The translations under genes and the position numbers were made by a program. A stretch of 64,000 nucleotides of DNA from a virus. Each line of letters begins with the position of its first letter. The stretch's first letter is position 1. Of the stretch, positions 23,063 through 44,332 are shown in pieces. The stretch lies in IMG/VR virus record IMGVR_UViG_3300029334_000002, one strand, 5' to 3'. A model generated the notes under the pieces. It had not been told where the DNA came from. It made no database searches and saw only the letters and a list, made by a program, of their open reading frames with translations.

Positions 23063-23254
23063 TTATTCACTAAATCTCATGCTAACTCTATCTAAATATT
23101 CTTCATCTGACGGGTTAGCGAATCTAATAACTGTATATATGCCTTTGCATTCTGGACATCTATTATTTTTTCTTTCATTCCATTCAAACACTGAAGCACA
23201 ACGAGTGCACTGGCATAATGTTGTTCGTGTTTCCATCTCATTCCTCCTCTTCAA
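23063..23254 (-). CDS. Small zinc-ribbon protein
   Basis: CQCTRC ... CPEC. Confidence 0.35.
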   Translation of the reverse strand: MKRRNEMETRTTLCQCTRCASVFEWNERKNNRCPECKGIYTVIRFANPSDEEYLDRVSMRFSE

Positions 23255-24008
23255 AGATGCTTCCGCTAATGCCTAAAGCTTCAGCAAGTAGTGTTTTCAG
23301 AGGTTCTGATGGATTCTGATCATTCAACCATCCTAAATAACTATCTGGAATTTCAGAGAGTGGTTCTCCCTTATGTTTGCCGAATGGCATAAGATATGTT
23401 TCTGGTGTAGGTTTGAATTCTTTCATCAGTTCATCTACTTCAGTTTCATCAAAAGATACTGTTAAATCTTTTCTTGATGCTAAATAATCTGCTAAGTGAA
23501 CTATCATCTGACCTTTTGTTTCTGGTAATGGCAGCTCATCTTTACTTCTTTTATCTGTGTTCCATTCACCCATATGTGAGGCGCAACAGTCTGCAATATA
23601 ATCCAATTCTTCATCTGGCAACCATTCAAATCCTTTATAGGATTTTATTCTCTCAGCTATAAGTAATGGGTGTTTAAAAAGAGTATATTGACTGCCATTA
23701 CGCCCAAGTTTTTCATCATCATGGTTCATAATAGCTGTTCGTAGCATATCTCTTTCTCTTGATGTAAACTGACTCTTGATACAATCAATTGACAGCATAT
23801 GATTTAAGAATCTAGTTGCCCCTTTTACATGTTTAGCAAGCCCCATAAAACCAACTGTATAATCAGGGTGATACTTGTTAGTACTTGAAGCAGACACTTG
23901 CCAGAAATATGTAGGCGCAGTATCTAGTAATTCAATACAAAATTCCTGAATATCATCATTTTCAAATACTTCTAATTCTTCCTTAAAAAATCTCTCTGCT
24001 AATGTCAT
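23238..24008 (-). CDS. Hypothetical protein, possible HD-type phosphohydrolase
   Basis: Scattered His/Asp residues (KYHPD, NHDDEK, HLADY) compatible with an HD domain. Weak. Confidence 0.25.
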   Translation of the reverse strand: MTLAERFFKEELEVFENDDIQEFCIELLDTAPTYFWQVSASSTNKYHPDYTVGFMGLAKHVKGATRFLNHMLSIDCIKSQFTSRERDMLRTAIMNHDDEKLGRNGSQYTLFKHPLLIAERIKSYKGFEWLPDEELDYIADCCASHMGEWNTDKRSKDELPLPETKGQMIVHLADYLASRKDLTVSFDETEVDELMKEFKPTPETYLMPFGKHKGEPLSEIPDSYLGWLNDQNPSEPLKTLLAEALGISGSIFEEEE

Positions 24009-25303
24009 ACAGTTTCCTCCTCAATAATTTCTTGTGCCTCTTCCATATCCGGTGTATCAGAGGAATCTTTTATCAATCCTTCAAGGACCTTGAAAGTGAA
24101 ATTCTTGTGTTTATAAGCCTTAAAGCTGCTTCTATTATCAATTCTTACAACTACACCTTCTCTAACATGTGTTACTCCTATTGGATCAGGCCCATCATAG
24201 TATTTTTCTACACGCTCCATAAGATCTTCTTTAGTAGTAAACAGGAATTTATCAAATTCAGGTACATGTTTAACTCCTAAACGATCACACCAATTCTTTA
24301 CTTCTTCCCATGGAATCTCTGTAATAATCCCATCTTCATTGGTCATAGTCATTCTATAAACATAAATATCAGAAGTACCAGGAGTACACCCATAAGAGAA
24401 CACTGTTTCATCACCGTAAAGCTTCTTAACTTCTTTATCTTTAATTTTAGTGTTGGAACAGGTTCCCATAATGGTCTGCTCTGTACCATCAACCCACCCT
24501 ACGATTTCATAAAACACTTCCATTCCTTTTGGCAGTTTGTCAATAAAGTAGTCATGATATTTCTGTCTAAATTTATCATTCCCATAGTAACCGCCTTCAA
24601 ATGTATTGAGTACAACTCTTCTTGTTCCAGTAACTATTTTCCATTCTTTGATAGCAGGAGCCGGTCTACAAAAAAGTTTTTGTAGTAGAGTCTTTTTCTT
24701 AGTAGTTACTTCTATTGCATTTGCTGTTCGACCAGATGTGCCATGCATTTTCAAAGTAATGTAACAAGTATCTCCTGGTTTAAAGGCATTTAAGTTATAT
24801 GCTAACTGTTCTGTATCAGCATGTTCTTTAAAATAAGGAAATTTGTTTTTTAAATTTGGAGTTTTTACTTTCGGACCATTGTTAGATTTTTTATGATTTG
24901 ATCTTGGAATATATTTTTTACAGATAACTGTCCCATCAAGTACAGTAATTTGATCTCCTAAAGATAATTTATTTATATCAGTCCATTTACTAAGAGATTC
25001 TACTGGTAAAACCAATCCTTCTGATTTTTCACCTCGCAGTCTCATAGCTTTAATGTTTCGTTTTACAGGATCAAGATATCCACCTGTAGTTGTTCCATCT
25101 TCATTTTTAATACGCAGTAAATTGTTTTCTTTTGCAAATTCTTCTCCTAGCTGACCATCAACCGGGAAAAATACAACTTTCTGCCCTTCGTAATAACTTA
25201 AATCAACAATAACCGTATTTCCAAAAACGGTACCAAGCTGGAGCCTATCAGCATTGCTGTGTTTACGAAGTTGCTTAAGCTCAGTAATGTAAGCACAATA
25301 CAT
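24005..25303 (-). CDS. ATP-dependent RNA ligase (Rnl2-like nucleotidyltransferase) fused to an N-terminal tRNA-binding (Myf/EMAP-like) OB domain
   Basis: N-terminus KHSNADRLQLGTVFGNTVIV...VFFPVDGQL...RLRGEKSEGLVLPVESL matches the tRNA_bind domain pattern. Ligase motif I ITLKMHGTSG (KxHGT as in T4 Rnl2), motif IV/V REGVVVRIDN and FKAYKHK. Confidence 0.6.
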   Translation of the reverse strand: MYCAYITELKQLRKHSNADRLQLGTVFGNTVIVDLSYYEGQKVVFFPVDGQLGEEFAKENNLLRIKNEDGTTTGGYLDPVKRNIKAMRLRGEKSEGLVLPVESLSKWTDINKLSLGDQITVLDGTVICKKYIPRSNHKKSNNGPKVKTPNLKNKFPYFKEHADTEQLAYNLNAFKPGDTCYITLKMHGTSGRTANAIEVTTKKKTLLQKLFCRPAPAIKEWKIVTGTRRVVLNTFEGGYYGNDKFRQKYHDYFIDKLPKGMEVFYEIVGWVDGTEQTIMGTCSNTKIKDKEVKKLYGDETVFSYGCTPGTSDIYVYRMTMTNEDGIITEIPWEEVKNWCDRLGVKHVPEFDKFLFTTKEDLMERVEKYYDGPDPIGVTHVREGVVVRIDNRSSFKAYKHKNFTFKVLEGLIKDSSDTPDMEEAQEIIEEETV

Positions 25304-25308
25304 TAAGT

Positions 25309-25464
25309 ATTGAATACCTCTTTCTCACTCATAATTCTCTTGCACAGATCAATTACATCTGTGTTGCCTCCTTTTATTTCATTATATATTTTAGTAACAC
25401 CATAAAGTTTTCCTATATGAAATCCTTTGTTATATGTATCAGTAATTTTCTTTTTCATCTTTTT
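25309..25464 (-). CDS. Small unannotated ORF (51 aa, MKKKITDTYNKGFHIGKLYG...) with its stop overlapping the ligase start
   Basis: ATG behind the phosphoesterase gene; its TAA overlaps the ATG of the next gene (TAATG). Missed by the ORF track's length cutoff. Confidence 0.25.
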
Positions 25465-25469
25465 TCTAG

Positions 25470-26027
25470 TTATAAACACGTAGCTCCTCCTGTTATTTCT
25501 TCTAAAGTTCTAGGAGTATAATTCAGCAGCATTGCTCCGACATTATACATTTTACATGGTGTATTATATAGATTTTCCATTTCATACTTTGTTCTTTGCA
25601 TCATATTATTTTCAAAACCTGTATGTACATGTCCATATAAATGGTACCAACCATAGTAATGATTCTTAAAACAAGGAATCGGATAATGACAAAGAATAAT
25701 ACTCTCTTTTGGATTAAGGTATAGTTCTTTATAATCAACTATTTCTACAAATAAATTCTGTAAATCTTTGTTTTTCAGAATCTTATTATCATGATTTCCT
25801 TTTATTAAATGAATCCTACCATTTAACTGGCTGTAATACTCCAATGTTTTAGTTGAACCATACCAACTAATATCTCCTAAAAGATAAACATCATCATCTA
25901 AGCCAACTACTGAATTCCAATTATTTTTAATAGTTTCATCGTTCTCTTCTATTGTCTTAAATGGTCTAGCATCGAATGCCAATGCATTTGTGTGACCAAT
26001 ATGTAAGTCTGAAATATAATAATTCAT
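25470..26027 (-). CDS. Calcineurin-like metallophosphoesterase
   Basis: Motifs DLHIGH, GDISWYG and GNHD. Confidence 0.6.
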   Translation of the reverse strand: MNYYISDLHIGHTNALAFDARPFKTIEENDETIKNNWNSVVGLDDDVYLLGDISWYGSTKTLEYYSQLNGRIHLIKGNHDNKILKNKDLQNLFVEIVDYKELYLNPKESIILCHYPIPCFKNHYYGWYHLYGHVHTGFENNMMQRTKYEMENLYNTPCKMYNVGAMLLNYTPRTLEEITGGATCL

Positions 26028-26172
26028 AAGCTACTCACCACAACACTAAGTATATCAATAACGCCAACAATTAGTAATATTATATAAAATCTTGTTCCAT
26101 GTATCCCTATTGATGAGCAATAGGCTCCTAGAATACCCCAACATAGAATATTCAAAATTGATAAAAATGTTT

Positions 26173-26394
26173 TCATAGCTCACCTATCCAATCTTCATAA
26201 ATATTATCTGCATGTGCTTCAATATCATCATGTAATGTCTCTTCTGGGTAATCAATAAGAGATTCTATTACATAAGAATCCATAACTAAACTTGATACTT
26301 TACTGTCTGACAACTGATATTTTGTTTTTAATGTATCTTTCAAAGCTTCAATATAAGTTTTGGCACTTTTCGTAAGTTTTAATGTATCCGTCAT
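26173..26394 (-). CDS. Hypothetical small acidic protein
   Basis: ORF only. Confidence 0.3.
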   Translation of the reverse strand: MTDTLKLTKSAKTYIEALKDTLKTKYQLSDSKVSSLVMDSYVIESLIDYPEETLHDDIEAHADNIYEDWIGEL

Positions 26395-26398
26395 CGTT

Positions 26399-27181
26399 CT
26401 ACTCCTGTAATTTTCGTGCTGAATAACAAATTTCTTTATATTTCATAACTGCATCATACACTTCATCTGGAATTATATTTTTATATTGTTTGACGACAAT
26501 TTCTATAATTTTCTTTTTAGCAATGTTATATGAATTACTTGCTTCCTCTTCTGACTCGAAACGTCCCAAATAAATTTTTTCTCCATTAACTCCATTGCAA
26601 CTTGCTATATATGCTCCGGACTTTATTTTTTGTACTCCTAAAGCATAATTACCTCTATCATTTTTTCTATCTAGCACAATTGTATTTAATCTATGGGGTA
26701 ATAACAAACAGGTGTCGGGACTATATATTTTATTTCCAATAACTTTTATATCTTTGTCCAATTCAAGTGAGTCGTCCTTTGATAAGATATATTTATGTTC
26801 GCTGTACCATTTTGCAAAATTTTGATAATTTTTCCATTCGTCGCATACATAGCAATCAATATAATTTTGATTTTTAATATATTTATCGCTATAACATCTT
26901 GTTAACATAGATCCCCATTTTGTATATTCTTCTGTATGAGAAACACCAACTTTAGTTTTAAAAGGGCCATAACCTCTATAACCAACACCTAAATAAGTGG
27001 GAATATTATAGTTTATAATATTTCCTTTTTTGAAATATTGATAATAAGTGTGTCTCACAATAATTCCATCTTCGAATTGGATATCAATATCGTGGACATT
27101 TTTATATCTAATAATTTGCATCTTTAATCCTTGTTTATTAATATTTTCTTCTCCGGTTCGGTCTATTTTTTGCATAGTCAA
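26399..27181 (-). CDS. Putative free-standing homing-endonuclease-like protein (AP2-type DNA-binding domain plus HNH-like region)
   Basis: KIYLGRFESEEEASNSYNIAKKK matches the AP2 domain signature. LELDKDIKVIGNKIYSPDTCLLLPHRLN resembles the HNH cores of phage HEGs. Confidence 0.35.
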   Translation of the reverse strand: MTMQKIDRTGEENINKQGLKMQIIRYKNVHDIDIQFEDGIIVRHTYYQYFKKGNIINYNIPTYLGVGYRGYGPFKTKVGVSHTEEYTKWGSMLTRCYSDKYIKNQNYIDCYVCDEWKNYQNFAKWYSEHKYILSKDDSLELDKDIKVIGNKIYSPDTCLLLPHRLNTIVLDRKNDRGNYALGVQKIKSGAYIASCNGVNGEKIYLGRFESEEEASNSYNIAKKKIIEIVVKQYKNIIPDEVYDAVMKYKEICYSARKLQE

Positions 27182-28023
27182 TTCACCCTTATAATCTGTT
27201 CATACAAACAAATATCCTTATCAGAAACTGCAAGATTTTGATGATAATGTCCAAAAATATTTTTTCTATAATCAACATTACATCTGATCTCTTCCAAATA
27301 ATCAGTTAGCTTATCCGGTTTATATAATCCATGTGATAATAATGCTGCTGTAGAAGAAGCTGTACAATGCGTTAGGATAAAATCTACTTTATTATCATGT
27401 TCTGCCAGGTTCTTTATACCTTCATCCATCTCTTCTTGATTCGGCATTTCTCGCTCCCACCATGAAATGTGATTAATTCGGTACATTTTATCCGGATCAT
27501 CTCTCCATTCTTTTACTCTTGGATCATCAATCTCTAATACTCCATCTGAAATATCATGACTGGCAGCTCCACCAAAAGTAAAGAATTTTAACCCGTCTAT
27601 ATCAAATACCTGTCCTCTCATAAGATGAATTACTGATGGTTTAATAAAATGTACCTTACCACCATGCCATTCTTCTACCGGATAAGCATCTAATATATCG
27701 TAACATTCATGATTTCCGTCAATAAAGAGTGTTGTGAAATGCTTCTCTTCAAGCCAATTCAGATACCACCTTTGCTGCGGTGAATCTCTCCATATCCCAA
27801 AATCTCCAAGAACAATTACATAATCTTCTTTAGTCATCTCTCTTTGTTCCGGGAACGAGTCCATATTTAATCTATGGATCCAACCCCCATGTGTATCACC
27901 CGTAATCCAAATTATTTCCACCACCTCCAACAATATGTAGCAAATGAAAATCCTACAAGAATCATGAAATATGCTATAGGTATCGCGAAGAACATTTTCA
28001 TAATTGAAATTAGTAAAATACAC
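27178..28023 (-). CDS. Calcineurin-like metallophosphoesterase (Ser/Thr phosphatase or 2',3'-cyclic phosphodiesterase type)
   Basis: Motifs IWITGDTHGG, VLGDFG and GNHE. The real start is probably downstream of the annotated one. Confidence 0.6.
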   Translation of the reverse strand: MYFTNFNYENVLRDTYSIFHDSCRIFICYILLEVVEIIWITGDTHGGWIHRLNMDSFPEQREMTKEDYVIVLGDFGIWRDSPQQRWYLNWLEEKHFTTLFIDGNHECYDILDAYPVEEWHGGKVHFIKPSVIHLMRGQVFDIDGLKFFTFGGAASHDISDGVLEIDDPRVKEWRDDPDKMYRINHISWWEREMPNQEEMDEGIKNLAEHDNKVDFILTHCTASSTAALLSHGLYKPDKLTDYLEEIRCNVDYRKNIFGHYHQNLAVSDKDICLYEQIIRVN

Positions 28024-29026: not shown

Positions 29027-29998
29027 TTATTTATTTTCAACAGTTGCTATATTGCCTGATGTTAATTCTCCTGCGTCAACAATTGTTGCAGCATTTCCAC
29101 CTTGTACCTTCGGCACATCACCATTCCACTTATCAATCTTCTGTTTCTCAATAAGTTCTGGAGTAAGTGACTCAGCGATCTTTTTATTTGCTTCTGCTTC
29201 AGCATCCGCTTTAATTCTTGTAGCTTCAGCTTTACCTTCCGCAGTGATTTTCGCCTGTTCAGCTTCAATAGCGGCTTTCTCTTTATCCTGCTCCGCTGCG
29301 ATGAGAGCAACTTCCTTATCTTTATCTGCCTGTACCTTTGCAGTCTTAGCTTCAATATTTGCAAGTTCCAGTTCCTGCTGTGCATTTACTTTCTTCTGAA
29401 TAGCAGCCTGAGTTTCATCATCTGTAGAAATTGAAGTAAAGTTTACAGTATCAATGATGATTCCATATGGCTCAAATTTCTTTTTCAAGTATTTGTCAAG
29501 TGCTTCATTCAGTTCCTGGCGTTTATCACCAAATACATCTGTTACCGGATACTTAGCAGTTACTTCCTGTGTCCACGCTTTCATCTTTGGTTTAATGAAA
29601 GTATTTTTTACACTTTCTCCGGACTGACCTTTAAATCTTGTAAATACATCAGCAACTTGATCCTGATCGAACTTATAAGAGAATTCCAAATCAACAAGAA
29701 GCTGTTTCCCATCTGCGGTAGGAGTTTTAAAACTCTCATCTTTTGGTGAATCACCTTTATCTTCTGAAGTCAGATAAGACTGTTCAATACCAATTGAATA
29801 CAGTGATGTTTTTACTGTAGGTGAAATCAAATTCCATCCCTGTGAAAGAGTATCTTTTGAAATTCCACCGTTCATCTTGTATTCTACAGCTACATAACCA
29901 GCAGGAACTCTTACTGTGCACTTTGCTACACAAATTAATCCTGCTGCAATTATTACTGCTAATCCAACCCCACCTAAAAAACCTTTTTTCTTTTTCAT
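29027..29998 (-). CDS. SPFH / band-7 (stomatin-prohibitin-flotillin-HflC) membrane protein
   Basis: N-terminal TM anchor, band-7 core, and a C-terminal Ala/Glu/Lys coiled coil (IEAKTAKVQADKDKEVALIAAEQDKEKAAIEAEQAKI). Confidence 0.65.
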   Translation of the reverse strand: MKKKKGFLGGVGLAVIIAAGLICVAKCTVRVPAGYVAVEYKMNGGISKDTLSQGWNLISPTVKTSLYSIGIEQSYLTSEDKGDSPKDESFKTPTADGKQLLVDLEFSYKFDQDQVADVFTRFKGQSGESVKNTFIKPKMKAWTQEVTAKYPVTDVFGDKRQELNEALDKYLKKKFEPYGIIIDTVNFTSISTDDETQAAIQKKVNAQQELELANIEAKTAKVQADKDKEVALIAAEQDKEKAAIEAEQAKITAEGKAEATRIKADAEAEANKKIAESLTPELIEKQKIDKWNGDVPKVQGGNAATIVDAGELTSGNIATVENK

Positions 29999-30186
29999 TA
30001 CTCATTCTCCTTATCTTTTTCTTTATTTTCTTCTCTGTTTATTTCGTCTACTGCATCTTTCCAAATTCTATGCAAGAATCGTCCGAATGGATAAAACAGT
30101 GCAGATAATAGAAACCATAAAATTACTGCTCCAACCAATACTAAAAATACAAATACTGGATTCATGCTCTCTCCTTTATAATTCAA
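29998..30186 (-). CDS. Small membrane protein
   Basis: Hydrophobic ORF coupled to the SPFH gene. Confidence 0.3.
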   Translation of the reverse strand: MNYKGESMNPVFVFLVLVGAVILWFLLSALFYPFGRFLHRIWKDAVDEINREENKEKDKENE

Positions 30187-30427
30187 TACCTTCCATAACA
30201 GCTCTAGCTTCTAAAATAGCTAAATAATTTGCCATAGCATCAATCTGAATATTATAAATGCTTCTTGGGCATGTTGGCTCAAAACTAAGACTTCCATTGT
30301 CCCATTTAAAAAGTATAGACTGCAAACCTCTGAATCTAAGCATTAACTGGTAATATTCAGCTTTGAATCTCTCGTTATAATCTGGGCTAACCATCATTTC
30401 TGTTGTTTCTTTTAATGTTTTTACCAT
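30176..30427 (-). CDS. Hypothetical small protein
   Basis: ORF only. Confidence 0.3.
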   Translation of the reverse strand: MVKTLKETTEMMVSPDYNERFKAEYYQLMLRFRGLQSILFKWDNGSLSFEPTCPRSIYNIQIDAMANYLAILEARAVMEGIEL

Positions 30428-30576
30428 GTTATTTGTCTCCTTTATATTCTTTAATATTATTTACAAATGTCCAAGTGAAAAAAGCTACTAGCATTAAACT
30501 AAATAAATTTTTATAAGTAATAAGATCTACTAATGATATTGCTATAAAAATAGCATCAAGAATGATAAAAAATATG

Positions 30577-30999
30577 TTAAGTTTCATTTAATTCATCTCT
30601 CACTCTCATAAGTATCTTCCCAAGCCTATTTTCTCCAACTCCATCTACAGTTCCCCAAATAGTATCTCCCCAAGTATTACCCTCTTCCAGATGCTCGTTT
30701 CCTGTAGCAAGTAATTTTTCCTTAAGGTCTGGATTCTGAGTGAATTTAGCCAGTACAATTTCATACATTACTTTATCTTTCACTTCTTCCCAATCTGATC
30801 TCAAATCAATCTTTCTACCTGCTGCCTTTGCCTCTGATGGGCTAGCTTGAGAAAATAACTGGAATTTTAGTCTACGATTTTTTGTTTTCTGTGCTTGAAA
30901 AGCTGCTTCATTATTTGTATAGTCCCATCCGTTATAACTTACCGGTGCCATATAAAAGTTACTTAAAAAGTAATAATCTCCAGTAAAACTATTAATCAT
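30577..30999 (-). CDS. NADAR-domain protein (YbiA/DUF1768 family; N-glycosidase / ADP-ribose-processing)
   Basis: GDYYFLSNFY near the N-terminus (NADAR hallmark GxYxxLSNF), a conserved W/E pattern, about 140 aa. Confidence 0.65.
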   Translation of the reverse strand: MINSFTGDYYFLSNFYMAPVSYNGWDYTNNEAAFQAQKTKNRRLKFQLFSQASPSEAKAAGRKIDLRSDWEEVKDKVMYEIVLAKFTQNPDLKEKLLATGNEHLEEGNTWGDTIWGTVDGVGENRLGKILMRVRDELNET

Positions 31000-31010
31000 T
31001 TTTCTCCTTC

Positions 31011-31193
31011 CTAATAATCACTACAAGTTACTGTCAAACTTACAAATCCATCATTTTGCTCAAAAGATGTAATAAACTCATCTTTTACCAATTCTTCTAC
31101 TATATCTCTGTCAGTTATTTTTGCTCCAATTAATTTAGGATCAGTCAAGTCGTATTCAGCTTCTACAGTGATCACTCTTTTTGTTGGTGCCAA
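31011..31193 (-). CDS. Hypothetical small protein (TTG start)
   Basis: ORF only. Confidence 0.25.
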   Translation of the reverse strand: MAPTKRVITVEAEYDLTDPKLIGAKITDRDIVEELVKDEFITSFEQNDGFVSLTVTCSDY

Positions 31194-31426
31194 AATTTCC
31201 TTTTCACATGCGTCATCAATTGGTTTATTTAATATTCGTTTTCCTCTTTGCGTAATATCACCTCCATATTTTATTTCATTGTTTAACCTCCTTAAGTGTA
31301 GGTGAGGAATTGAACCCCACCTTAACCTTTTGTTACTACACTTATTTTCTCTTCCCTACAAAGAATCCAACTAAGAAACAGGTTAATAAGCATACTACAA
31401 ACACGCCTATATTTAACACTATCATT

Positions 31427-32173
31427 TTATTTGCCTTTCTTTGTTTTCAGTTCCTGCAACTTTTTATTAATTTCATCATCTTTCATTTTCTTATCCAGAC
31501 GCTGTTTTTGCACAATAGTAGAACTTTCATAAACGATCCTAGCTCCATCAGCAGCCTCTTTTTGCTTTTTAACTCCGTCACGTACTTTCTCTAGCATCTT
31601 TTCCTCTTCACTAGAAGATACTCCCGGTGTTACATTAAAAGCTTTTGATGCCTGAGCTGTTTCCAAAGTTAAAACAGCACTTTCTTTTTCTGCTTTTAAA
31701 TCATTAAGCTGTTGCTGTAATACTTCTACTTTTTCTTTCTGTACGTCAGCATTCTCTTTCCATTCTTTTAATGTACTCTTAATAAAATCAATCTTATCAT
31801 TCAGCTCCTGTTGTTCTTTTAAGTAGACTTTTGCTGCTTCGTCATCTCCTCGATCCACACAAGCATTTACATTTACATCTGCTTTCATGGCATCTTTCTT
31901 CAAATGGAACAGGTCATCTTCATAATTGGAAATCTTACCAAGCATCTGTTGATATCTTACATTTTCCTGCTGAAGTTCATCTTCTTTCTTTTCAATAGCA
32001 GCGTTATAATAAGCTTTAGCTCCCTCAGGGGTGGCTGCATCTTTTTGAATTGCTTCGTCTGCTGTACCAGCAACTCTAAGTGACACTCTCTTACCAATTT
32101 GAGTTGTACGTGCAATAAATAACACAATACTAATTACTACAGCTATTAGGACCACAATTTCAAATAAGTTCAT
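31427..32173 (-). CDS. PspA/IM30-like coiled-coil protein with an N-terminal TM helix
   Basis: N-terminal hydrophobic helix, then a PspA-like coiled coil (CVDRGDDEAAKVYLKEQQEL resembles the PspA ALQKGDEDLAREAL segment). Confidence 0.45.
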   Translation of the reverse strand: MNLFEIVVLIAVVISIVLFIARTTQIGKRVSLRVAGTADEAIQKDAATPEGAKAYYNAAIEKKEDELQQENVRYQQMLGKISNYEDDLFHLKKDAMKADVNVNACVDRGDDEAAKVYLKEQQELNDKIDFIKSTLKEWKENADVQKEKVEVLQQQLNDLKAEKESAVLTLETAQASKAFNVTPGVSSSEEEKMLEKVRDGVKKQKEAADGARIVYESSTIVQKQRLDKKMKDDEINKKLQELKTKKGK

Positions 32174-32811
32174 TAGTCTCTCCCCTCATCAATATCAAGC
32201 CCAAAGTTTTTAAACAGTTCTGTCATACCTCCCACATAACCGGAACCTAATGCCTGGAATTTGAATCCATCTCCGTAACGGTATAATTTACCCATTTCTA
32301 CTGCATTCAATTTTTCAAAGTTCTCATTCTCAGACAGATCATATTCATACTTATCACCATCTGGATTGTCGTAATCACAAATTGTCATAACTGCATTGGA
32401 GACCATTCCAAAGTTCTGCATACGCTGTAATGCCCTAAAAATTGTTAAGCAGATAGTAAATTCTGTTTTATCTTTCGGGAATGTGTCAGCATGTACAATA
32501 AAATATTCGTCATAATGCTTTCCATTAAAAATCATTCCCTGAGAATCATCACCAGTTTTATTGTCTCCTGAATAATCTACCCAAGGATATGCAGACCCAT
32601 CTTCATAGGTTTTATAGTTTACTAAATCTTCTGGGTATACTACTTTGCGACTTGAATCTGTTAAAAATCCATTGATATCAAAGTCAATATCTGCTTCACC
32701 AGCATAACGGTTCTGATCCCAATTGACTCCAATGAAGAAGTTCTTAATACCTGTACCATCCTCTTTTACCATACTAATTTTCTGATTTTTGCTCATGTTG
32801 ATTACTGCCAT
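32173..32811 (-). CDS. terD: TerD-family protein (tellurite-resistance / Ca-binding TerD domain)
   Basis: MAVINMSKNQKISMVK...IGVNWDQN, GDNKTGDD, FGMVSNAVMTICD and FKFQALGSGYVGGM align along the whole length with E. coli TerD. Confidence 0.8.
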   Translation of the reverse strand: MAVINMSKNQKISMVKEDGTGIKNFFIGVNWDQNRYAGEADIDFDINGFLTDSSRKVVYPEDLVNYKTYEDGSAYPWVDYSGDNKTGDDSQGMIFNGKHYDEYFIVHADTFPKDKTEFTICLTIFRALQRMQNFGMVSNAVMTICDYDNPDGDKYEYDLSENENFEKLNAVEMGKLYRYGDGFKFQALGSGYVGGMTELFKNFGLDIDEGRD

Positions 32812-32828
32812 ATCTCTTTATCTCCTTT

Positions 32829-33596
32829 TTATTTATTATTCAGCCAGTCTTTATACTGACGAAGAATCTCTGTATATAACTGTTCATCAGACATTTTATT
32901 CATGTCTTTTACTGCTGTAAAACCGGTGTTATCATGTTTTCTACCTTTCATATTGTCAAGGGATTTTAAATAACCAAAATCTTCATCCCCAATTCCTATG
33001 AACTGTACAAAGATGTTGTACTCTGAAAGCTCTTTAATAACTGCATTGGTGGCAGAAGTGTCACTGTTCTCACCATCTGTAATAAAGATGATAAATGCTG
33101 GAATCTCACTTGGCTCGATATCTTTATAATATGTAACCATTTCTTTCAATACAGGAGCATAATTAGTACCACCCATATACATATGAGCTTTTTTCATAAC
33201 ATTTTTAACATAACTACTATAATTATCAGCGTTAGCAGCTTTTAAGCGCTCCGCTCCATTTGAGAACAACCAACTCTCAAGTTCTCCATTATCGTCAAAT
33301 CTTAGAGCAATAGGCAACAAACGAGAAATGGTTTCCTGTACAGATCCATTATCATACAGCCAATCCATACTTCCTGAATAATCCATTGCAAGAGCTACTC
33401 TAGCTGTATGTTTTGTCATATCAATCTTGCTTCCCTTAGACATATCAATAAGTACTTTGCCAAGATTTTCACTGTGCTTAGACATATCAATTGTCTGTGA
33501 CTTTTCTTCATATACAGGTTGCTGAGTTACAGCAGAAGATAACTCTACTGCTGCTTCCTCATCTTTTTTTCCGAATAGTTTTCCCAAAAATCCCAT
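32829..33596 (-). CDS. von Willebrand factor A (vWA) protein, TerY/TerF-C-like
   Basis: MIDAS motif ALAMDYSGSM and a vWA core (FIIFITDGENSD). It sits immediately next to terD. Confidence 0.65.
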   Translation of the reverse strand: MGFLGKLFGKKDEEAAVELSSAVTQQPVYEEKSQTIDMSKHSENLGKVLIDMSKGSKIDMTKHTARVALAMDYSGSMDWLYDNGSVQETISRLLPIALRFDDNGELESWLFSNGAERLKAANADNYSSYVKNVMKKAHMYMGGTNYAPVLKEMVTYYKDIEPSEIPAFIIFITDGENSDTSATNAVIKELSEYNIFVQFIGIGDEDFGYLKSLDNMKGRKHDNTGFTAVKDMNKMSDEQLYTEILRQYKDWLNNK

Positions 33597-33597
33597 T

Positions 33598-36219
33598 TTA
33601 GTTACTTCCTTTCTTACAAATTGTTTTTCTAATCCAATCTACAGGTACAACCATAAATGCTGTCACAAGGACTACAATCCACTGTTTAACATCCATTGGA
33701 GTTGTCTGTACTAGATTTCCTACAAAGTTACACAAAACTACAGCCATTGCAAAAATACCTAATGCGATATACACAAATAATTTATTATTTTTAATTCCTT
33801 TGAAAAGATTCATACTATCTGTTCTAATAGTGAATCCATTAAATACTGCCATTAAACACAATAAAGCGAATCTCGCTGTCATAGCCGAAAGTTTTGTTGC
33901 AAACATATTTCCAACTGGACCAAATGTAATTACACCAAATAAAGCAATAAATACAATTGAACTTAATGCAATTCTCCCTTTCGCTCCACGGATAAATAAT
34001 CCGGATCCTTTCATGATAGGCTCTTCATTCATATATTCCTCTTTTGGCGGTTCTCCACCAAAGCTTAATGAGTTAAGTGAATCCATGATGATATTTACAA
34101 TAAGGATCTGAACTGCTGCTAATAGAGCAGAGCCACCAGAAATAATTGGAAATACCATACTTAAGATCAACAACGAAATATTGATAGGCAGCTGGAATTC
34201 AAGGAACATCATAATGTTATGCATAAATGTTCTACCAAGTTCGACTGCCTTTACCACACTTGCAAAATTATTGTCTGTCAAAACAATATCTGCAGCTTCT
34301 TTTGCTACATCAGATCCGTCTTGCATTCCAAAGCCTACATCTGCTTTCTTTAATGCGGGAGCATCGTTCACACCGTCACCGGTCATAGCAACAGACATCC
34401 CAATTTCTTGTGCTAATGTTACAAGACGAAGCTTTGTATTTGGTGAACATCTGGAGATTACTCTTAACTGTGGAATAATTTCTTTTACTTTTACATCTGA
34501 CATTGCCTCAAACTCATCATTGGTAACTGCTAAGTCTCCAGGCTTATAAATGCCAGCTTCCATAGCAACAGCCTTAGCAGTTTCCATACAGTCACCAGTA
34601 ATTTCAATTACCTGAATTCCAGCTTTATGAGCAATTTTTACTGCTTCTGGAACTTCATTCCTAACCGGGTCAACAACTCCAATGATTCCAAGGAGATTCA
34701 TTTCATCGGGGAGACCATCATCAGTTTTATCTGAGATAGTCAATGCAATACATCTCATTGCCTTCTCTGTTAATCCCTTAATATGGCTCTTTAAAGCTTT
34801 TCTTTTTTCTTCTGTCAGCTCAGTTACAATGCCATCATTATCAAGATAAAATTTACACTTCTCAATTAATTTCTCTGGTGCGCCTTTATAAACAGTAAAA
34901 TCATTTGCTCCATTATTTAAAGTAACTGCAGAGAATTTATTTTCACTACTAAATGGAACACGTTTCTTCATGATAGCTTTATTCTGTATTTTTTGTGCGT
35001 CTTCAGGAGAAAGCATATCAAACACTGCTCGATCAATTGAATTCCCACCAGTGATATTCCCATTAGAATCAAACACTGCACTATTATTCATACAAATGTT
35101 TAAATCAATTAGCTCGTTGAGCGAACTTTCCTTATTAAAAATATCCTGACAGTTACCGTTAATCATAACTGTAGAAGTCATTTCACCTGTTGTGAGAGTT
35201 CCTGTCTTATCCGTACAAATTAAATTAACATACGCCAATTCAGGAATTTTACCAGTATTCTTCGCAAGAATATTGAATTTTTCCATTGTCGATACATTCT
35301 GTTTAGTTACAAGTTTTACAATGAGTGGCAGACCTTCCGGTACAGCCGCAACAATAATTGTCAATGCATTTGAGACATTCTGTGCTACCTTCTGAATACT
35401 TTCAAGAATACTTCCTGAGAAATACTGACTTAAGCTTCCAGCATTTAAGATACCTGTAATTGTCATAATTACAAATGCTAATGCTGCCGCAATTGTTCCC
35501 CATTTTGAAATAAAATCACACAAATGATCCAGAGCAATATCAAGAGCTGTCTTAGGAGGCTCTAAAGTCTGCATTTTGACAAGAGTATCACCATTAACTG
35601 TATTAACACCAACATCTGTAACAATCATTTTTCCTTCACCAGACATGATAACTGTTCCTGCAAAGAGAGAACACTGATCCGTATATGCAGTAGTTGATGT
35701 TGTTTTAACATGCTTATAATTAGCACTAGGAATTTTTCTACATTCTTTTGTCTCTCCATTGATAGCGGCGTTATTAACAGAAATTTCTCCATCAACAATA
35801 AATCCATCTGCAAAAATCTCTTGTCCAGTTCTCAATAGAACTAAATCACCTACTACCAGATCATCTTTATTAATTGTCTGTACGCTTCCATCTCGGACAA
35901 CATCACAATATCTAACTGCCGTTTTTGCTCTTAGCTCTGCTGCAGATTTCTGTACGCCTAGACCTGTCTTAATAGCAATTCCAGTAACAATAGCTAAAAC
36001 CACTATAATCATTACAGGTTCAGAAAGAGACATTACTCCCATAGCTCCTAAAACCAACTGAAACAAAGCAATTATTATTAGAATCATAGTAATTGGTTCA
36101 GTTAATGCCTCCTTAGCAAAATGATACCATTTCTTCAATTCAGGCTCCGGAAGCTTATTACTTCCATATGTAGTCCTACTAACCTCTACTTCGCTACTTT
36201 TTAATCCATTAAAATTCAT
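33598..36219 (-). CDS. P-type cation-transporting ATPase (type II, Ca2+/Mg2+-like)
   Basis: Phosphorylation motif DKTGTLT, hinge TGDGVNDAPALKKADVGFGM, an N-terminal cation_ATPase_N-like region and about 10 TM helices. Confidence 0.8.
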   Translation of the reverse strand: MNFNGLKSSEVEVSRTTYGSNKLPEPELKKWYHFAKEALTEPITMILIIIALFQLVLGAMGVMSLSEPVMIIVVLAIVTGIAIKTGLGVQKSAAELRAKTAVRYCDVVRDGSVQTINKDDLVVGDLVLLRTGQEIFADGFIVDGEISVNNAAINGETKECRKIPSANYKHVKTTSTTAYTDQCSLFAGTVIMSGEGKMIVTDVGVNTVNGDTLVKMQTLEPPKTALDIALDHLCDFISKWGTIAAALAFVIMTITGILNAGSLSQYFSGSILESIQKVAQNVSNALTIIVAAVPEGLPLIVKLVTKQNVSTMEKFNILAKNTGKIPELAYVNLICTDKTGTLTTGEMTSTVMINGNCQDIFNKESSLNELIDLNICMNNSAVFDSNGNITGGNSIDRAVFDMLSPEDAQKIQNKAIMKKRVPFSSENKFSAVTLNNGANDFTVYKGAPEKLIEKCKFYLDNDGIVTELTEEKRKALKSHIKGLTEKAMRCIALTISDKTDDGLPDEMNLLGIIGVVDPVRNEVPEAVKIAHKAGIQVIEITGDCMETAKAVAMEAGIYKPGDLAVTNDEFEAMSDVKVKEIIPQLRVISRCSPNTKLRLVTLAQEIGMSVAMTGDGVNDAPALKKADVGFGMQDGSDVAKEAADIVLTDNNFASVVKAVELGRTFMHNIMMFLEFQLPINISLLILSMVFPIISGGSALLAAVQILIVNIIMDSLNSLSFGGEPPKEEYMNEEPIMKGSGLFIRGAKGRIALSSIVFIALFGVITFGPVGNMFATKLSAMTARFALLCLMAVFNGFTIRTDSMNLFKGIKNNKLFVYIALGIFAMAVVLCNFVGNLVQTTPMDVKQWIVVLVTAFMVVPVDWIRKTICKKGSN

Positions 36220-36221: not shown

Positions 36222-37256
36222 TTAAATCTCTCCTAATACAATTCTTTCATTGACAGACATTACAAATTCTTCTATAGCTTTATAATTTGGTTTATCAGGC
36301 AATAAGGTATTCTTTGAATCATACTCAAGTCTTTTCTCTAACTCGTTTACCATTTCAAAAAATTCTGGGATAGGCTGACTGTTTGCATCCAAATATTCTC
36401 CATTACGTAGAGCCATAAGAAGCTCATGATCATCTTCTCTATATGTAATAATTTTGCCTTTTTCAAGAATATCAAAACACATAAGATACAATCTCACTAA
36501 ATGGCACATATGCTTTCCTAACTTATTATGTTCTATGGCATGCTTATTTCTCTTCCCAATTCTGGAATAATCCCTAATAATGTTTTTCATTTCGGCCCAC
36601 ATCCCCTGATAATCATTCAAAGGATAGTGCTTCAACTGGATATCCATAAATACTTCTGTTTCATAATCTTCCTGAATACCTTTATCTACATAAAGCTTTA
36701 TTGCATCTTCTGGAAAATTGAAATACTTTTCAGGGAAAGTATAAAAAGCATTCATAATACTATTAAGAACATGCTGCATTCTTTCTTCTTGTCTCAATTT
36801 CCTGGCAGCTTTATTATCAAGCCTTCTTAACTGGCTTGTAGCATAGCCTCCAAAAGAATAGATTGCTTTCTTAGATAAAAACATTTCAGCATTATCAAGA
36901 AGTTCTTGACCAATTGGATGAATATAAAGATAATGTTCTGGCTTCAATCCTATCAGCTCAATTGTGTTTGGGTTGCAGTTTGACAATAGAGTTATCAATT
37001 TATTAAAAGAATAGATTGTTGTATCTGTTGTTTCTTCCGTTACCTGATCAAAATTATGTGTAGGAATCAGGATTTCTTCTCTTTTATTTAAAGCACAACC
37101 CCTAATATCCAGATCGGAGTTTTCTGTATCTGTACCATAAGCATGAGACCCACCTAAGCCTAATAGAATTATGTTACTCCCCAGGTGCTCGTTCGCTCTT
37201 AAGAAATCATAGTGTTCACTTTTCAACAATTTTTTGATTTTCTCTATTTTCATCAA
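36222..37256 (-). CDS. Pol-beta superfamily nucleotidyltransferase
   Basis: GLGGSHAYGTDTENSDLDIRG fits the G[GS]x9-13[DE]h[DE]h minimal-NTase signature. Confidence 0.45.
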   Translation of the reverse strand: MMKIEKIKKLLKSEHYDFLRANEHLGSNIILLGLGGSHAYGTDTENSDLDIRGCALNKREEILIPTHNFDQVTEETTDTTIYSFNKLITLLSNCNPNTIELIGLKPEHYLYIHPIGQELLDNAEMFLSKKAIYSFGGYATSQLRRLDNKAARKLRQEERMQHVLNSIMNAFYTFPEKYFNFPEDAIKLYVDKGIQEDYETEVFMDIQLKHYPLNDYQGMWAEMKNIIRDYSRIGKRNKHAIEHNKLGKHMCHLVRLYLMCFDILEKGKIITYREDDHELLMALRNGEYLDANSQPIPEFFEMVNELEKRLEYDSKNTLLPDKPNYKAIEEFVMSVNERIVLGEI

Positions 37257-38724: not shown

Positions 38725-39870
38725 TTACATGTCCTCCATTGAATAAATTACTTTTTCTAAGCTTCTTTTTGATTTGAAACACTTCTTAAGCAAACACCAC
38801 ATAATGGCTTTTTCAGTATCATCTTCGTCTTCCCAATCATTTAAGACTACAGAAGTCTGTGTTCCATCTTTGAACCCTACAGTAGTTCTAATTTTTCCTG
38901 TAGCAATATCTTTTGTTCTTCCTACAAATGTGATATCATCTTTCGAAAGTGTTTTACAAACCTGTTTATCAGTTTTATTTTTAGGTACAATATATACATC
39001 AATGCCTAAAGCATCTTTAATCTGGCGCTCACAGCTTCTAAGCTCTTCTCCAATAGTATGCTCTTTTTCTTTTTTCGCTACTGCTTTTTCAAGTGCTTTT
39101 AAAATCTCATCTGGTGACATATTCATATCTGTTTTCTCCTCTTTATAATTAAAATACTGCATTGGTTTCAGTTTAAACTTATTTTTTGTATGTAAACGAT
39201 CAATCCGTCTTTTAATTTCCGGATCATCGCAAATACCTGTACGAATATATCTATCTAATACTGCATAGGTAAATCCGAAGCTATCTTCATCTGATTTACC
39301 GCATAACCCATCTGATGGTGTTTTCTCTATATATTTTTTAGGTAGTCCTAAATAATAACCGATTCTTTTTACTTCACTCTTTGTGAACTGAGCCAACGGT
39401 GAAAAGTCCCCTGCTGCGTCACCATATCTAGTGGAGTATCCGATGTAATCCTCAGAAAGATTACATGTATTAACCACTCTTCCATTGTGTGACTGTGACA
39501 CCCCGTATAGAGTGGTCATTCTTAGTCTAGGAGCGAGATTAATTAATGTCTGATCTGTTACATTAAATGCAGCATCAATTTGATCAATAATATCATCATA
39601 GGCAGATCCAACATTGATAGTAAGATAATCAATCCCCAATACATGCTGGCAAATGTCATATGCCACATCAATATCATCCTGTTTATAGTTCGGCATGATT
39701 ACTCCGAGAACTTTGTCAGCTCCAACGGCTTCCACACATAGCTCAGCAGCTACTAAAGAGTCAACGCCACCGGAAATACCTACTATGAGATTACATCCAG
39801 GACCATTCTCTTCTCTCCAATCTCTAATCCACTGAATACAATCATTTGTTGCTTTTTCTACATTAAACAT
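38725..39870 (-). CDS. nadE: NadE-like PP-loop amidotransferase/synthetase (NAD+ synthetase family) with a C-terminal extension
   Basis: PP-loop LIVGISGGVDSLVAAEL followed by VLGVIMPN, the NadE-type arrangement. 381 aa, against about 275 aa for typical NadE. Confidence 0.55.
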   Translation of the reverse strand: MFNVEKATNDCIQWIRDWREENGPGCNLIVGISGGVDSLVAAELCVEAVGADKVLGVIMPNYKQDDIDVAYDICQHVLGIDYLTINVGSAYDDIIDQIDAAFNVTDQTLINLAPRLRMTTLYGVSQSHNGRVVNTCNLSEDYIGYSTRYGDAAGDFSPLAQFTKSEVKRIGYYLGLPKKYIEKTPSDGLCGKSDEDSFGFTYAVLDRYIRTGICDDPEIKRRIDRLHTKNKFKLKPMQYFNYKEEKTDMNMSPDEILKALEKAVAKKEKEHTIGEELRSCERQIKDALGIDVYIVPKNKTDKQVCKTLSKDDITFVGRTKDIATGKIRTTVGFKDGTQTSVVLNDWEDEDDTEKAIMWCLLKKCFKSKRSLEKVIYSMEDM

Positions 39871-40405
39871 TCTGCTCCTCCAATTTCCACAGTTCTACTT
39901 CAAAACTACTTAATTCTTCTTCTATAATCTTATAAACCACTTCCCAGTCTGCTCCTCCTCTTCCGCAGCCTATTTTATATGGGAGTGCAATGGTTGTCTT
40001 GTGAGGTCTGTTATCAGCATCAAACCAATAAACAGGTATTTGTTGTCGAATAAAATTTAATCCTTCTCGAAAAGCTTTAACATCAGTATACTGTTTTCCA
40101 TCATATCCATACTTGTCTTGTGCAAATAAGGACAATATCTCTTGATTTTTCCTTCTGATAAAGTACTCGTCATATGTTCCAAGAAGTAATTCTGGATTAA
40201 ATTCACGTAATTTACAAACGTTTCTATAATGTATATAAATACCTTCGTCATAATCTCTTAATGCTTTAGCAACTCCAGTATTCATTTCTCCTTGGCAATT
40301 AACTTGATGAATTATATAATCGGTCTGTGCATCTACAATGTTACCTTCAATAATTTTAATCATAAATCTTTTCCTATAAATCCTGAAATGTAAACTTCTC
40401 GCCAC
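39863..40405 (-). CDS. Macro-domain protein (ADP-ribose binding / hydrolase)
   Basis: IIEGNIVDAQTDYIIHQVNCQGEMNTGVAKALRD matches the macro-domain N-terminal signature (GDIT...DAIVNAAN...GGGVA). Confidence 0.6.
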   Translation of the reverse strand: MARSLHFRIYRKRFMIKIIEGNIVDAQTDYIIHQVNCQGEMNTGVAKALRDYDEGIYIHYRNVCKLREFNPELLLGTYDEYFIRRKNQEILSLFAQDKYGYDGKQYTDVKAFREGLNFIRQQIPVYWFDADNRPHKTTIALPYKIGCGRGGADWEVVYKIIEEELSSFEVELWKLEEQNV

Positions 40406-40775
40406 AGGAGCAAATCACTTCTCCAATAGTTCCGATTGATGTTGGTGTAAAGCACCATGTAAGAGAGCCGCCTATGCAACCATGTCCCATTGCTCTCTGT
40501 TCCATAGTTTTCAAACCATGTTTCTCAGCATCATGTTTTAATTCCCACTCTCTGATTTTCTCTTGTTCTTTTTCTGAAATTGGAAATCCTCTATACAGAT
40601 CCTCTTTTGCTTCTTTTAACTCGGTTGCCATTCTCTGCATTTCTGAATCTTTATAATGCTCATCTTTGAGTTTTTTATTTTCTTCTTCCAGATACTCAAT
40701 ACGTCTCTCTTTGTCAACTGTCTTGTCAATAATTCCTTGACAAAGATCTGAGATTGATGCGTTAAAAAAATTCAT
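40374..40775 (-). CDS. Hypothetical protein
   Basis: ORF only. Confidence 0.3.
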   Translation of the reverse strand: MNFFNASISDLCQGIIDKTVDKERRIEYLEEENKKLKDEHYKDSEMQRMATELKEAKEDLYRGFPISEKEQEKIREWELKHDAEKHGLKTMEQRAMGHGCIGGSLTWCFTPTSIGTIGEVICSCGEKFTFQDL

Positions 40776-42242: not shown

Positions 42243-42610
42243 TATTTTTTATCCTCCTCTTTGTCATTTACAATTTTATCAATCTGATCTGTGATATAAT
42301 CAACTACATCTTTACCAGTTTTGCCAATTGTTTGAATATTATCTGGTGTGATTTCATTTACAACTGCCATCGTATATATTGTTTCTGTATTAGGTGTCAT
42401 GATTGTAATGATAGTCATTACAACACATCCGATAATTAATTTGCTAATAGTTTTTCTAAACTTAAATGGTTCGTTATATCCGGTTAATCCAGCAAATAAA
42501 GCACACATAGCAATAACTCCGCATATTCCTGCGATCATTCCAAAAAATGTTGTTAAATTATCTGCTCTACTAGCAGAATAAATCAACCAAGGACTAATAA
42601 TCGGTTTCAT
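42242..42610 (-). CDS. Small membrane protein
   Basis: Several hydrophobic helices. Confidence 0.35.
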   Translation of the reverse strand: MKPIISPWLIYSASRADNLTTFFGMIAGICGVIAMCALFAGLTGYNEPFKFRKTISKLIIGCVVMTIITIMTPNTETIYTMAVVNEITPDNIQTIGKTGKDVVDYITDQIDKIVNDKEEDKK

Positions 42611-42623
42611 ATTTTTATCTCCC

Positions 42624-43013
42624 TTATAACTTTCCTATCAAACAGCCCCAAGTAAAAGCAATCTGAAACATATGAGTTATCTGATCTTGAATTAAATTAA
42701 TTTTCTTTTTATTGGCTTTCATATCATCTACTAACATATGTATCAATAAATTCATAACCAATAATAAAGGATTCCATTTACCGCCAATAATCATAAGCGC
42801 AATTGTTGGTGGTAACATAATCATAAATGACCAACTAAAGCTATGCATAAACAACGCTGCTAAATAATCATATTTATATAATTTTCCTGGTGAATTCTTT
42901 TCCCACCATGATTTTTGTTTTGCAGATGCCAACCATCCTTGTAAATAATAATCATCTACAATGTGGCAGAAAATCATTGTAAATAATATAAATATTTTAT
43001 ATGCGATATTCAT
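42624..43013 (-). CDS. Small membrane protein
   Basis: Hydrophobic helices. Confidence 0.35.
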   Translation of the reverse strand: MNIAYKIFILFTMIFCHIVDDYYLQGWLASAKQKSWWEKNSPGKLYKYDYLAALFMHSFSWSFMIMLPPTIALMIIGGKWNPLLLVMNLLIHMLVDDMKANKKKINLIQDQITHMFQIAFTWGCLIGKL

Positions 43014-43816: not shown

Positions 43817-43869
43817 TCCAAATCTCCTTATAATCTATTTCTTACTGTTTAATAATCCTTACTTAACTT

Positions 43870-44331: not shown

Positions 44332-44332
44332 C

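Follow-up and report, generated by a model that had tools for sequence, protein, structure and literature searches.

The locus considered here raises a simple question: what does an RNA ligase preceded by an OB-fold domain do for the phage that encodes it? The ligase is the product of open reading frame (ORF) 24005–25303 in a 64,000-nucleotide stretch of viral DNA (IMG/VR virus record IMGVR_UViG_3300029334_000002), which in its full length we call the window. The original prediction, made from the sequence alone, saw in this protein an unusual fusion of a generic tRNA-binding module with a ligase core, lying within a local tRNA-repair block. Our analysis leads to a different view. We consider it quite likely that the protein is a phage ATP-dependent RNA ligase of the Rnl5 family, and that it acts as the sealing enzyme in a toolkit for break repair, together with two other products of the window: Pnk-HD, a polynucleotide kinase (Pnk) fused to an HD domain, and a nucleotidyltransferase of the RlaP family. 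The ligase gene and its parts are as follows.

24005–25303, minus strand: ATP-dependent RNA ligase of the Rnl5 type, 432 aa (whole gene)
24905–25303, minus strand: N-terminal OB domain, residues 1–133, of the Rnl5 N-domain/tRNA_bind-fold type
24824–24904, minus strand: interdomain linker, residues 134–160, basic and predicted to be disordered
24101–24823, minus strand: nucleotidyltransferase (adenylyltransferase) domain, residues 161–401, with the PF09414 match over residues 180–398
24008–24100, minus strand: C-terminal tail, residues 402–432, predicted to form two helices before an acidic end, no separate domain

The ORF and the motifs originally quoted for it are real. Motif I reads K185-M-H-G-T-S (KMHGT at residues 185–189); the codon of its lysine lies at 24749–24751, and the translation was checked. 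Motif III is E266, motif IV is E382-G-V-V-V-R (residues 382–387) and motif V is K398-H-K400. In the OB domain, which includes D49, R90-G91, S94, G96 and K130, the quoted stretch RLRGEKSEGLVL occupies residues 88–99. The protein is indeed an RNA ligase and not a DNA ligase or a capping enzyme. The Pfam RNA_ligase profile (PF09414) matches residues 180–398 with an E-value of 7e-9, and PHROG 968, 'RNA ligase', matches from end to end (E 3e-71). The Pfam 'PHA02142 OB-fold domain' (PF21189, residues 6–101) scores 24.9 bits against the whole protein and 27.3 bits against the N-domain alone, the cut-off being 27. The linker is poorly conserved among homologs, and its residues 137–151 have an AlphaFold pLDDT below 50. 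After motif V only 32 residues remain, with no Pfam or PHROG match past residue 408.

The Rnl5 family is defined by an N-terminal OB domain and a C-terminal nucleotidyltransferase domain without a C-domain (PMC4408790). This is the layout that we find: an N-terminal OB module, a C-terminal nucleotidyltransferase domain carrying the motifs and nothing appended after it. The Rnl2 layout, in which an N-terminal nucleotidyltransferase domain is followed by the Rnl2-specific C-terminal domain, is absent from the ligase. What had been taken for an unusual fusion is the long-known Rnl5 signature, and the protein is in this respect an ordinary family member. Indeed, the OB-plus-ligase architecture, the likeness of the OB domain to tRNA-binding domains and the occurrence in phages have all been published already, since the resemblance of the OB domain of DraRnl to PheRS-B2 was described together with a mention of phage members (PMC1807946, PMC4408790, PMC7261155).

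The closest known systems are NgrRnl (Naegleria gruberi, PDB 5COT) and DraRnl (Deinococcus radiodurans, DR_B0094). Both end shortly past motif V (PMC1807946), whereas the window ligase is about 90 residues longer, with a longer linker, inserts in the nucleotidyltransferase domain and a 30-residue helical and acidic tail. Its motif I is of the Rnl2-like form KxHGT, in contrast to KxDG in NgrRnl and DraRnl, so that NgrRnl Asp172 corresponds to His187. NgrRnl Arg149 aligns with Q166, and in the profile alignment NgrRnl Arg4 has no visible counterpart. The NCBIfam profile of the DraRnl family (TIGR02306) matches with E 2e-16 and 59.8 bits, with only the first 210 of its 341 positions aligned, and the equivalog cut-off of 151.15 bits is not reached. 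Because of this score, we regard the ligase as a member of a distinct, divergent subfamily of the Rnl5 kind (PHROG 968) and not as a DraRnl equivalog. A single-sequence phmmer search with the ligase against PDB sequences gave nothing useful, and a close-homolog profile gave E 1.4e-3. A profile of 47 homologs of 35–56% identity matches NgrRnl with E 7e-10, the alignment running from the start of the OB domain across the linker to the end of motif I. Invariant in these 47 homologs are K185, G188, S190, R228, R246, E266, G269, Y304, Y316, E382, G383, K398 and K400.

The ligase belongs to a large set of related proteins. At least 8000 candidates, all passing E 1e-3, were found in a 90%-clustered database, and at the 50% level the representatives number 2500, of which 845 have E-values below 1e-30; most of the matches are collinear over the full length. 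Among isolated phages, 365 records have a homolog, including 296 of mycobacteriophages, and among the matches listed the annotation is 'RNA ligase'. A rival reading takes the ORF for an inactive or decaying ligase homolog with no enzymatic role, for which we see nothing specific apart from the score under the DraRnl equivalog cut-off. Every nucleotidyltransferase motif is intact, as is the nucleophilic lysine, and none of them varies across hundreds of clusters made at 50% identity. The ORF is full-length and 99–100% conserved in many independent metagenomes, and in relatives motif I is a target of inteins, which is typical of functionally constrained sites. We therefore consider decay highly improbable. 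The inteins (Hint with or without a LAGLIDADG endonuclease) were seen in two homologs, P0122 (796 aa) and P0125 (589 aa), at about residues 186–190, just past the region of the motif I lysine; the window's own copy is free of an intein.

If the ligase itself is unremarkable, might its OB domain still be a generic tRNA-binding recruiter, with the genes flanking the ligase forming a local tRNA-repair operon? The domain does belong to the tRNA_bind fold class. It is the same fold variant as Trbp111, CsaA, MetRS-C and PheRS-B2, the last of these being a tRNA_bind-type domain. However, the match to the tRNA_bind profile itself (PF01588) is not significant: 14 bits and E 0.056 over 22 residues, the gathering threshold being 27. 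Trbp111, as a dimer, binds the 3'-terminal CA of tRNA (PMC11286949). In NgrRnl and DraRnl the N-terminal OB domain contributes to the site of adenylylation (PMC4408790, PMC7261155). In the NgrRnl Michaelis complex the N-domain residues Arg4, Asp53 and Lys121 contact the gamma-phosphate of ATP and its metal (PMC7261155). Deletion of the OB domain abolishes ligase adenylylation and overall nick sealing and spares the sealing of pre-adenylylated nicks; the specificity for an RNA 3'-OH is located in the nucleotidyltransferase domain and is unchanged at step 3 by the deletion (PMC4408790, PMC7261155). In the window ligase, K130 aligns with Lys121 and is at least 90% conserved, and D49 aligns with Asp53, which is conserved in most members although not in all. 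Since the OB and nucleotidyltransferase domains superpose on NgrRnl as one body, there is little reason to think of the OB domain as a free tether. The idea that it targets the ligase to tRNA is thus not borne out, and a role in step 1 of ligation would fit the kept residues better.

The second half of this idea, the choice of partner genes, turned out to be a matter of looking further along the window, where two genes stand out.

48673–49605, minus strand: Pnk-HD, a 5'-OH polynucleotide kinase with a C-terminal HD phosphohydrolase (P-loop GLPASGKST, SSDKLR)
36222–37256, minus strand: RlaP-family Pol-beta nucleotidyltransferase of the 'RNA repair pathway' type (PF10127 RlaP, E 1e-15, 58.6 bits, cut-off 23)

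The kinase fused to an HD domain had been pointed out before, and the profile searches agree (AAA_33 E 3e-20; HD 25.4 bits; bacter_Pnkp TIGR04075 E 7e-12). Among PDB entries, its kinase domain matches the CthPnkp kinase (4gp7, E 1e-7) and T4 Pnk (E 3e-5). The same phage accordingly has a 5'-OH kinase fused to a phosphoesterase, and Pnk-HD is probably the end-healing partner of the ligase, even though it lies 24 kb away. Proteins of the RlaP family have been described as working together with RNA ligases (PMC7824862). The RlaP gene, of which the original prediction made no mention, probably encodes a third component of the toolkit, since in distant phages it directly adjoins the ligase gene. 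In the window the ligase is located at 24 kb, RlaP at 36 kb and Pnk-HD at 49 kb, so that the toolkit is dispersed over 25 kb.

The case for this partnership comes from relatives of the ligase. We collected 161 ligase loci from IMG/VR and searched all of their ORFs with profiles built up iteratively from the window proteins. A 12-sequence alignment worked as a query for finding loci on viral contigs, whereas scans with the distant representatives P0152 and P0165 taken singly gave 0 and 1 loci, respectively. The set comprises 14 close loci (ligase at least 87% identical), 66 at mid-distance (59–66%) and 81 distant ones (including 2 duplicates of the window clade), and clustering of the ligases at 70% identity gave 46 clusters. 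In the close loci no Pnk or Pnk-HD gene is found within 10 kb. At mid-distance it is adjacent, downstream and on the same strand, in 42 of the 66 loci and within 2 kb in 54, and in the distant class it lies within 2 kb in 28/81. Counted by cluster, Pnk is within 2 kb of the ligase in 19 of 46, against a few percent that we estimate for a randomly placed gene in a genome of ~150 kb. The downstream Pnk-HD homologs of the mid-distance loci are 30–47% identical to the window protein over residues ~10–310, that is, over the full length. RlaP is found in 48/161 loci.

The distant loci show three arrangements. In the first, ligase, RlaP and Pnk-HD form a cassette in which RlaP starts 0–30 bp past the ligase stop (seven loci: L104, L106, L107, L114, L115, L145 and L154). 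In the second, the ligase is followed within 2 kb by Pnk-HD. In the third, seen in about 10 loci, a stand-alone Pnk is directly followed by a gene of the same type as MPE1, one of two metallophosphoesterases encoded near the window ligase (MPE1 and MPE2), and an MPE2-type gene is located upstream of the ligase. Isolated phages add to this picture. Bacillus phage vB_BcoS-136 (Kenyattavirus) has a ligase 54% identical to that of the window, and the next gene, annotated 'polynucleotide kinase', is an AAA_33 + HD protein 33% identical to Pnk-HD. In mycobacteriophages, where ligase identity is 27–34% across the 296 records, a ligase of this kind is encoded by phage Eureka, with a gene for a T4-like Pnk-HAD lying two small genes upstream of it. 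Eureka's group includes Cjw1, whose Pnkp was reportedly characterised biochemically by Zhu, Yin and Shuman in 2004 (cited in PMC2190708). The linkage of the ligase with a kinase-phosphatase and with RlaP is thus conserved in relatives and not in the window itself, where the genes are 11–24 kb apart. The healing module, on the other hand, has been swapped across lineages (Pnk-HD, Pnk-HAD or Pnk plus metallophosphoesterase) while the ligase was kept. Because such swappable healing modules and RlaP recur with the ligase, its job would be the repair of breaks with 5'-OH and 3'-phosphate ends.

How do the immediate neighbours of the ligase, from which the local tRNA-repair operon was composed, compare with these partners? 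They are the following.

25470–26027, minus strand: MPE1, a 185-aa calcineurin-like metallophosphoesterase, upstream of the ligase gene and separated from it by one small ORF
27178–28023, minus strand: MPE2, calcineurin-like metallophosphoesterase, putative role (Metallophos E 1.6e-8, PHROG 1649 E 1e-47)
23238–24008, minus strand: HD phosphohydrolase with a C-terminal ExoX-like_C/QSregVF_b domain (HD-ExoX_C), overlapping the ligase stop by 4 nt
26399–27181, minus strand: HNH homing endonuclease (PHROG 953, E 7e-56), between the two metallophosphoesterase genes

The two flanking phosphoesterases are what they had been taken for: they match Metallophos (E 6e-7 for MPE1 and 2e-8 for MPE2), and all five metallophosphoesterase motifs are readable in both. 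MPE1 also matches PHROG 547 (E 1.5e-43) and PDB 1xm7 (E 4e-9). In MPE2, the PHROG 1649 family match covers residues 36–264, and the 35 N-terminal residues after the listed GTG are covered by no family profile. Since the match begins only at residue 36, the listed GTG is probably too far upstream, with the true start just before the GDTHG motif, around residues 33–36. For the HD-like ORF the prediction held in part: Pfam gives no direct HD match, but an H...HD...H...D pattern is readable and homologs at ~50% identity carry PF01966 HD along with PF20600 ExoX-like_C. The ORF itself matches QSregVF_b (E 3.5e-7) and PHROG 5889. The ExoX-like_C/QSregVF_b domain, the ~50 C-terminal residues, is otherwise found at the C-terminus of DEDDh exonucleases of the DnaQ/ExoX type (NCBIfam PRK06309, E 1e-9). 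The operon partner of DraRnl, DR_B0095, is reported to have a DEDDh-exonuclease-like N-terminus (PMC5397189).

The same survey of 161 loci gives the following for these genes.

MPE1: close loci, adjacent in 10/14 and absent in 4/14; mid-distance, absent in 59/66; distant, present in 16/81
MPE2: close loci, within 2 kb in 14/14; mid-distance, absent in 60/66; distant, present in 12/81
HD-ExoX_C: close loci, overlapping the ligase in 14/14; mid-distance, absent in 66/66; distant, present in 6/81

By cluster, MPE1 is found in 11, MPE2 in 10 and HD-ExoX_C in 2 of the 46. MPE1, MPE2, HD-ExoX_C and Sak4 stay together with the ligase only in the 14 closest relatives. It is true that the genes for MPE1, the small ORF, the ligase and the HD protein abut or overlap, as members of a repair operon might. 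In the other lineage, moreover, an MPE1-type gene comes right after a stand-alone Pnk and an MPE2-type gene lies upstream of the ligase, and CthPnkp and lambda phosphatase are calcineurin-type enzymes that open 2',3'-cyclic phosphates (PMC2190708). Against this, MPE1 is missing in 4 of the 14 close relatives, both phosphoesterases are missing in ~90% of the mid-distance loci, and a homing endonuclease is inserted inside the 'operon'. The HNH gene, which just 3 of the 14 closest relatives have, looks like a recent insertion; it is a mobile element with no repair role. As for HD-ExoX_C, in other phages it goes with replication genes and not with ligases: it adjoins genes for Pol III alpha, ERCC4, PDDEXK and RecD2 proteins, without an RNA ligase nearby. 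Because of these neighbours, HD-ExoX_C is probably a replication-module gene and not a ligase partner. Taken with the behaviour of the OB domain, a tRNA-directed ligase served by a local repair operon seems to us an unlikely explanation. The block is mostly a positional coincidence within a replication module, in which one or two members may be accessory. Among its genes, MPE1 has the best case for a true link to the ligase, the MPE1-type gene of the Pnk-MPE1 pairs in the second phage lineage being 30–37% identical to it. It could possibly act as an accessory 2',3'-phosphoesterase, a link that this pairing supports moderately. MPE2-type genes are found 0.7–2 kb upstream of the ligase in about 10 distant loci. 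Of the predicted healing-and-sealing role, then, the part that stands is that of Pnk-HD, joined by RlaP, on the grounds of gene linkage; the flanking genes as partners do not.

The position of the ligase in a replication region suggests yet another explanation, namely that it serves DNA replication or repair by sealing RNA-primed or RNA-patched DNA nicks, in which the 3'-OH side ends in ribonucleotides, as has been proposed for DraRnl, while Pnk-HD heals DNA breaks with 5'-OH and 3'-phosphate ends. The window, with ~34% G+C and nearly all genes on the minus strand, covers the part of a large tailed phage genome devoted to replication and nucleotide metabolism. It encodes ribonucleotide reductase, a helicase, a split DNA polymerase, an exonuclease, a primase, DnaB and Sak4, as well as an NAD-salvage set, three tRNAs, an NAD-dependent DNA ligase and integrase-like genes. 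The ligase gene keeps company with Sak4, an SSB-like PHROG 2367 protein, DnaB, the primase and the polymerase. Munir and Shuman (2017, J Bacteriol) reportedly found that Runella HD-Pnk heals the ends of both DNA and RNA. Characterised Rnl5 enzymes carry out Mn-dependent sealing of 3'-OH/5'-PO4 duplex nicks and need RNA on the 3'-OH strand (PMC4408790, PMC5397189), accepting DNA outside it. The sole known phenotype of DraRnl is in DNA-damage survival, its loss slowing genome reassembly after irradiation (PMC5397189). However, RlaP, which recurs as a partner, comes from a family whose defining trait is that it occurs with RNA ligases in RNA repair (PMC7824862). In mycobacteriophages, moreover, ligases of this family are paired with a Pnkp of the T4 type, and the phage already owns a dedicated enzyme for joining DNA.

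50342–52393, minus strand: NAD-dependent DNA ligase, 683 aa, near the NAD+ supply cluster

Since this enzyme is present, the Rnl5-type protein is not needed as a replicative DNA ligase. We therefore regard a DNA role as improbable. The partnership with RlaP and Pnk together with the separate NAD-dependent DNA ligase makes RNA-break repair the likelier reading.

From these observations and from homology we infer the following scheme of sealing, healing and fill-in. Ligation would take three steps. Lys185 of motif I would attack ATP to form ligase-AMP, while the OB domain, packed on the nucleotidyltransferase domain, would help through K130 and D49 to hold ATP's gamma-phosphate along with the pyrophosphate leaving group. 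AMP would then move to the 5'-phosphate end, and attack by the 3'-OH RNA end would seal the break. Pnk-HD would prepare the ends by phosphorylating 5'-OH groups and removing 2',3'-cyclic or 3'-phosphates, and RlaP would restore lost nucleotides. The likely purpose is to undo the cuts that ribotoxins of the host, for example anticodon nucleases, make in RNA.

Several points weigh against RNA-break repair by an Rnl5-type ligase with Pnk-HD and RlaP. The activity of the ligase and its close relatives is assigned by homology, the score is under the TIGR02306 equivalog cut-off (59.8 vs 151 bits), and several contact residues of NgrRnl are not kept (Arg149 aligns with Q166, Arg4 has no counterpart, and Asp172 of motif I is His187). 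The three components are 11–24 kb apart in the window, about half of the distant loci are without a Pnk inside 6 kb, and loci from related phages are non-independent samples. The ligase gene also has genes for DNA replication and recombination around it (Sak4, DnaB, primase, polymerase), and the one known phenotype of DraRnl concerns DNA damage (PMC5397189). Finally, the characterised Rnl5 enzymes seal duplex nicks, and breaks in an anticodon loop are no duplex nicks. The physiological substrates of Rnl5 enzymes have been described as uncharted (PMC5397189), and the substrate (RNA or an RNA-DNA hybrid; tRNA or another RNA) is the weakest point of our explanation.

Comparison with known repair systems shows both shared logic and differences. 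T4 Pnkp with Rnl1 (and Rnl2), acting against damage by the anticodon nuclease PrrC, combines a phage 5'-kinase/3'-phosphatase with an ATP-dependent RNA ligase in the same way. The kinase domain of the window Pnk is homologous to T4 Pnk and the window motif I resembles that of T4 Rnl2, whereas the ligase is of the Rnl5 and not the Rnl1 or Rnl2 type and the phosphatase is an HD domain in place of the DxDxT/HAD domain of T4. In the mycobacteriophages, too, the partner is Pnk-HAD and not Pnk-HD, and in vB_BcoS-136 the ligase and Pnk-HD are adjacent, unlike the 24 kb between them here. In Runella slithyformis, an HD 2',3'-phosphoesterase is fused to a 5'-OH kinase and overlaps an upstream ATP-dependent ligase ORF (PMC6097658). 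The domain order there is HD-Pnk as opposed to Pnk-HD in the window, and the Runella cluster adds Tpt1 and a methyltransferase-HIT protein. The Pnkp/Hen1 system of Clostridium thermocellum has a similar kinase domain (PDB 4gp7, E 1e-7), and the calcineurin-type 2',3'-cyclic phosphodiesterase of CthPnkp parallels the phage pairs of Pnk and MPE1 (PMC2190708). CthPnkp differs in having three activities in one polypeptide and a Rnl4-type ligase, and in requiring Hen1, which was not seen in the window.

Other parts of the window provide the setting for this system.

11893–13281, 13360–14004 and 14113–16677, minus strand: DNA polymerase split in two ORFs (N-terminal and C-terminal parts of PHROG 405), with a third ORF between them
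29027–36219, minus strand: SPFH/Band_7 protein, PspA-like protein, TerD, vWA-TerF-like protein and an 873-aa P-type cation-transporting ATPase
38725–44881, minus strand: NAD+ supply cluster of NAD synthetase, nicotinamide phosphoribosyltransferase (NAMPT), PRPP synthetase (Prs) and an isochorismatase/nicotinamidase-like protein
45480–45561, 46980–47054 and 47423–47494, minus strand: tRNA genes Leu(TAG), Met(CAT) and Gln(TTG), 1–3 kb from the Pnk-HD gene
47532–48632: AAA ATPase gene, separating the tRNA genes from Pnk-HD
52746–53657 and 54903–55910, minus strand: integrase-like (tyrosine recombinase) genes on both sides of a PHROG 5732 ORF

The ORF between the polymerase parts is 214 aa long and carries a NUMOD4 motif; it likely encodes a homing endonuclease that stands alone and splits the polymerase gene. 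The region 29027–36219 is a stress or membrane module, unusual for a phage; Band_7 homologs were found near the ligase in 28/161 loci. In vB_BcoS-136, Prs and NAMPT genes are likewise located near the ligase-Pnk pair. The two integrase-like genes sit in an otherwise lytic-type-looking replication region. A near-identical ligase region is carried by IMG/VR contigs of 100–250 kb. In bacterial assemblies, the closest ligase copies are from Clostridia (Roseburia, 66%; Acetatifactor muris, 65%; and Lachnospiraceae metagenome-assembled genomes). Megablast of 22–29 kb against INPHARED revealed no near relative among isolated phages at the DNA level, although relatives of the ligase do turn up there by tblastn.

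As a discovery the locus has little value, because isolated phages already have a gene annotated as RNA ligase beside a polynucleotide kinase. Its modest value is comparative: in phages that have diverged widely, this Rnl5-type clade is accompanied by RlaP and by kinase/phosphatase modules that can be swapped. It is tempting to speculate further that the ligases of this clade are dedicated to repairing tRNA or rRNA cut by ribotoxins, with the Trbp-like OB domain binding an RNA 3'-end or tRNA in addition to its part in adenylylation. We hold this stronger version to be doubtful, but if it is true, Rnl5 would gain its first defined RNA-repair function, and phages would have a second, Rnl1-independent answer to anticodon nucleases. 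In any case, the ligase, Pnk-HD, RlaP and the small metallophosphoesterases make up a tractable protein set of a gut Clostridia phage with which questions of Rnl5 repair in vivo may be addressed.

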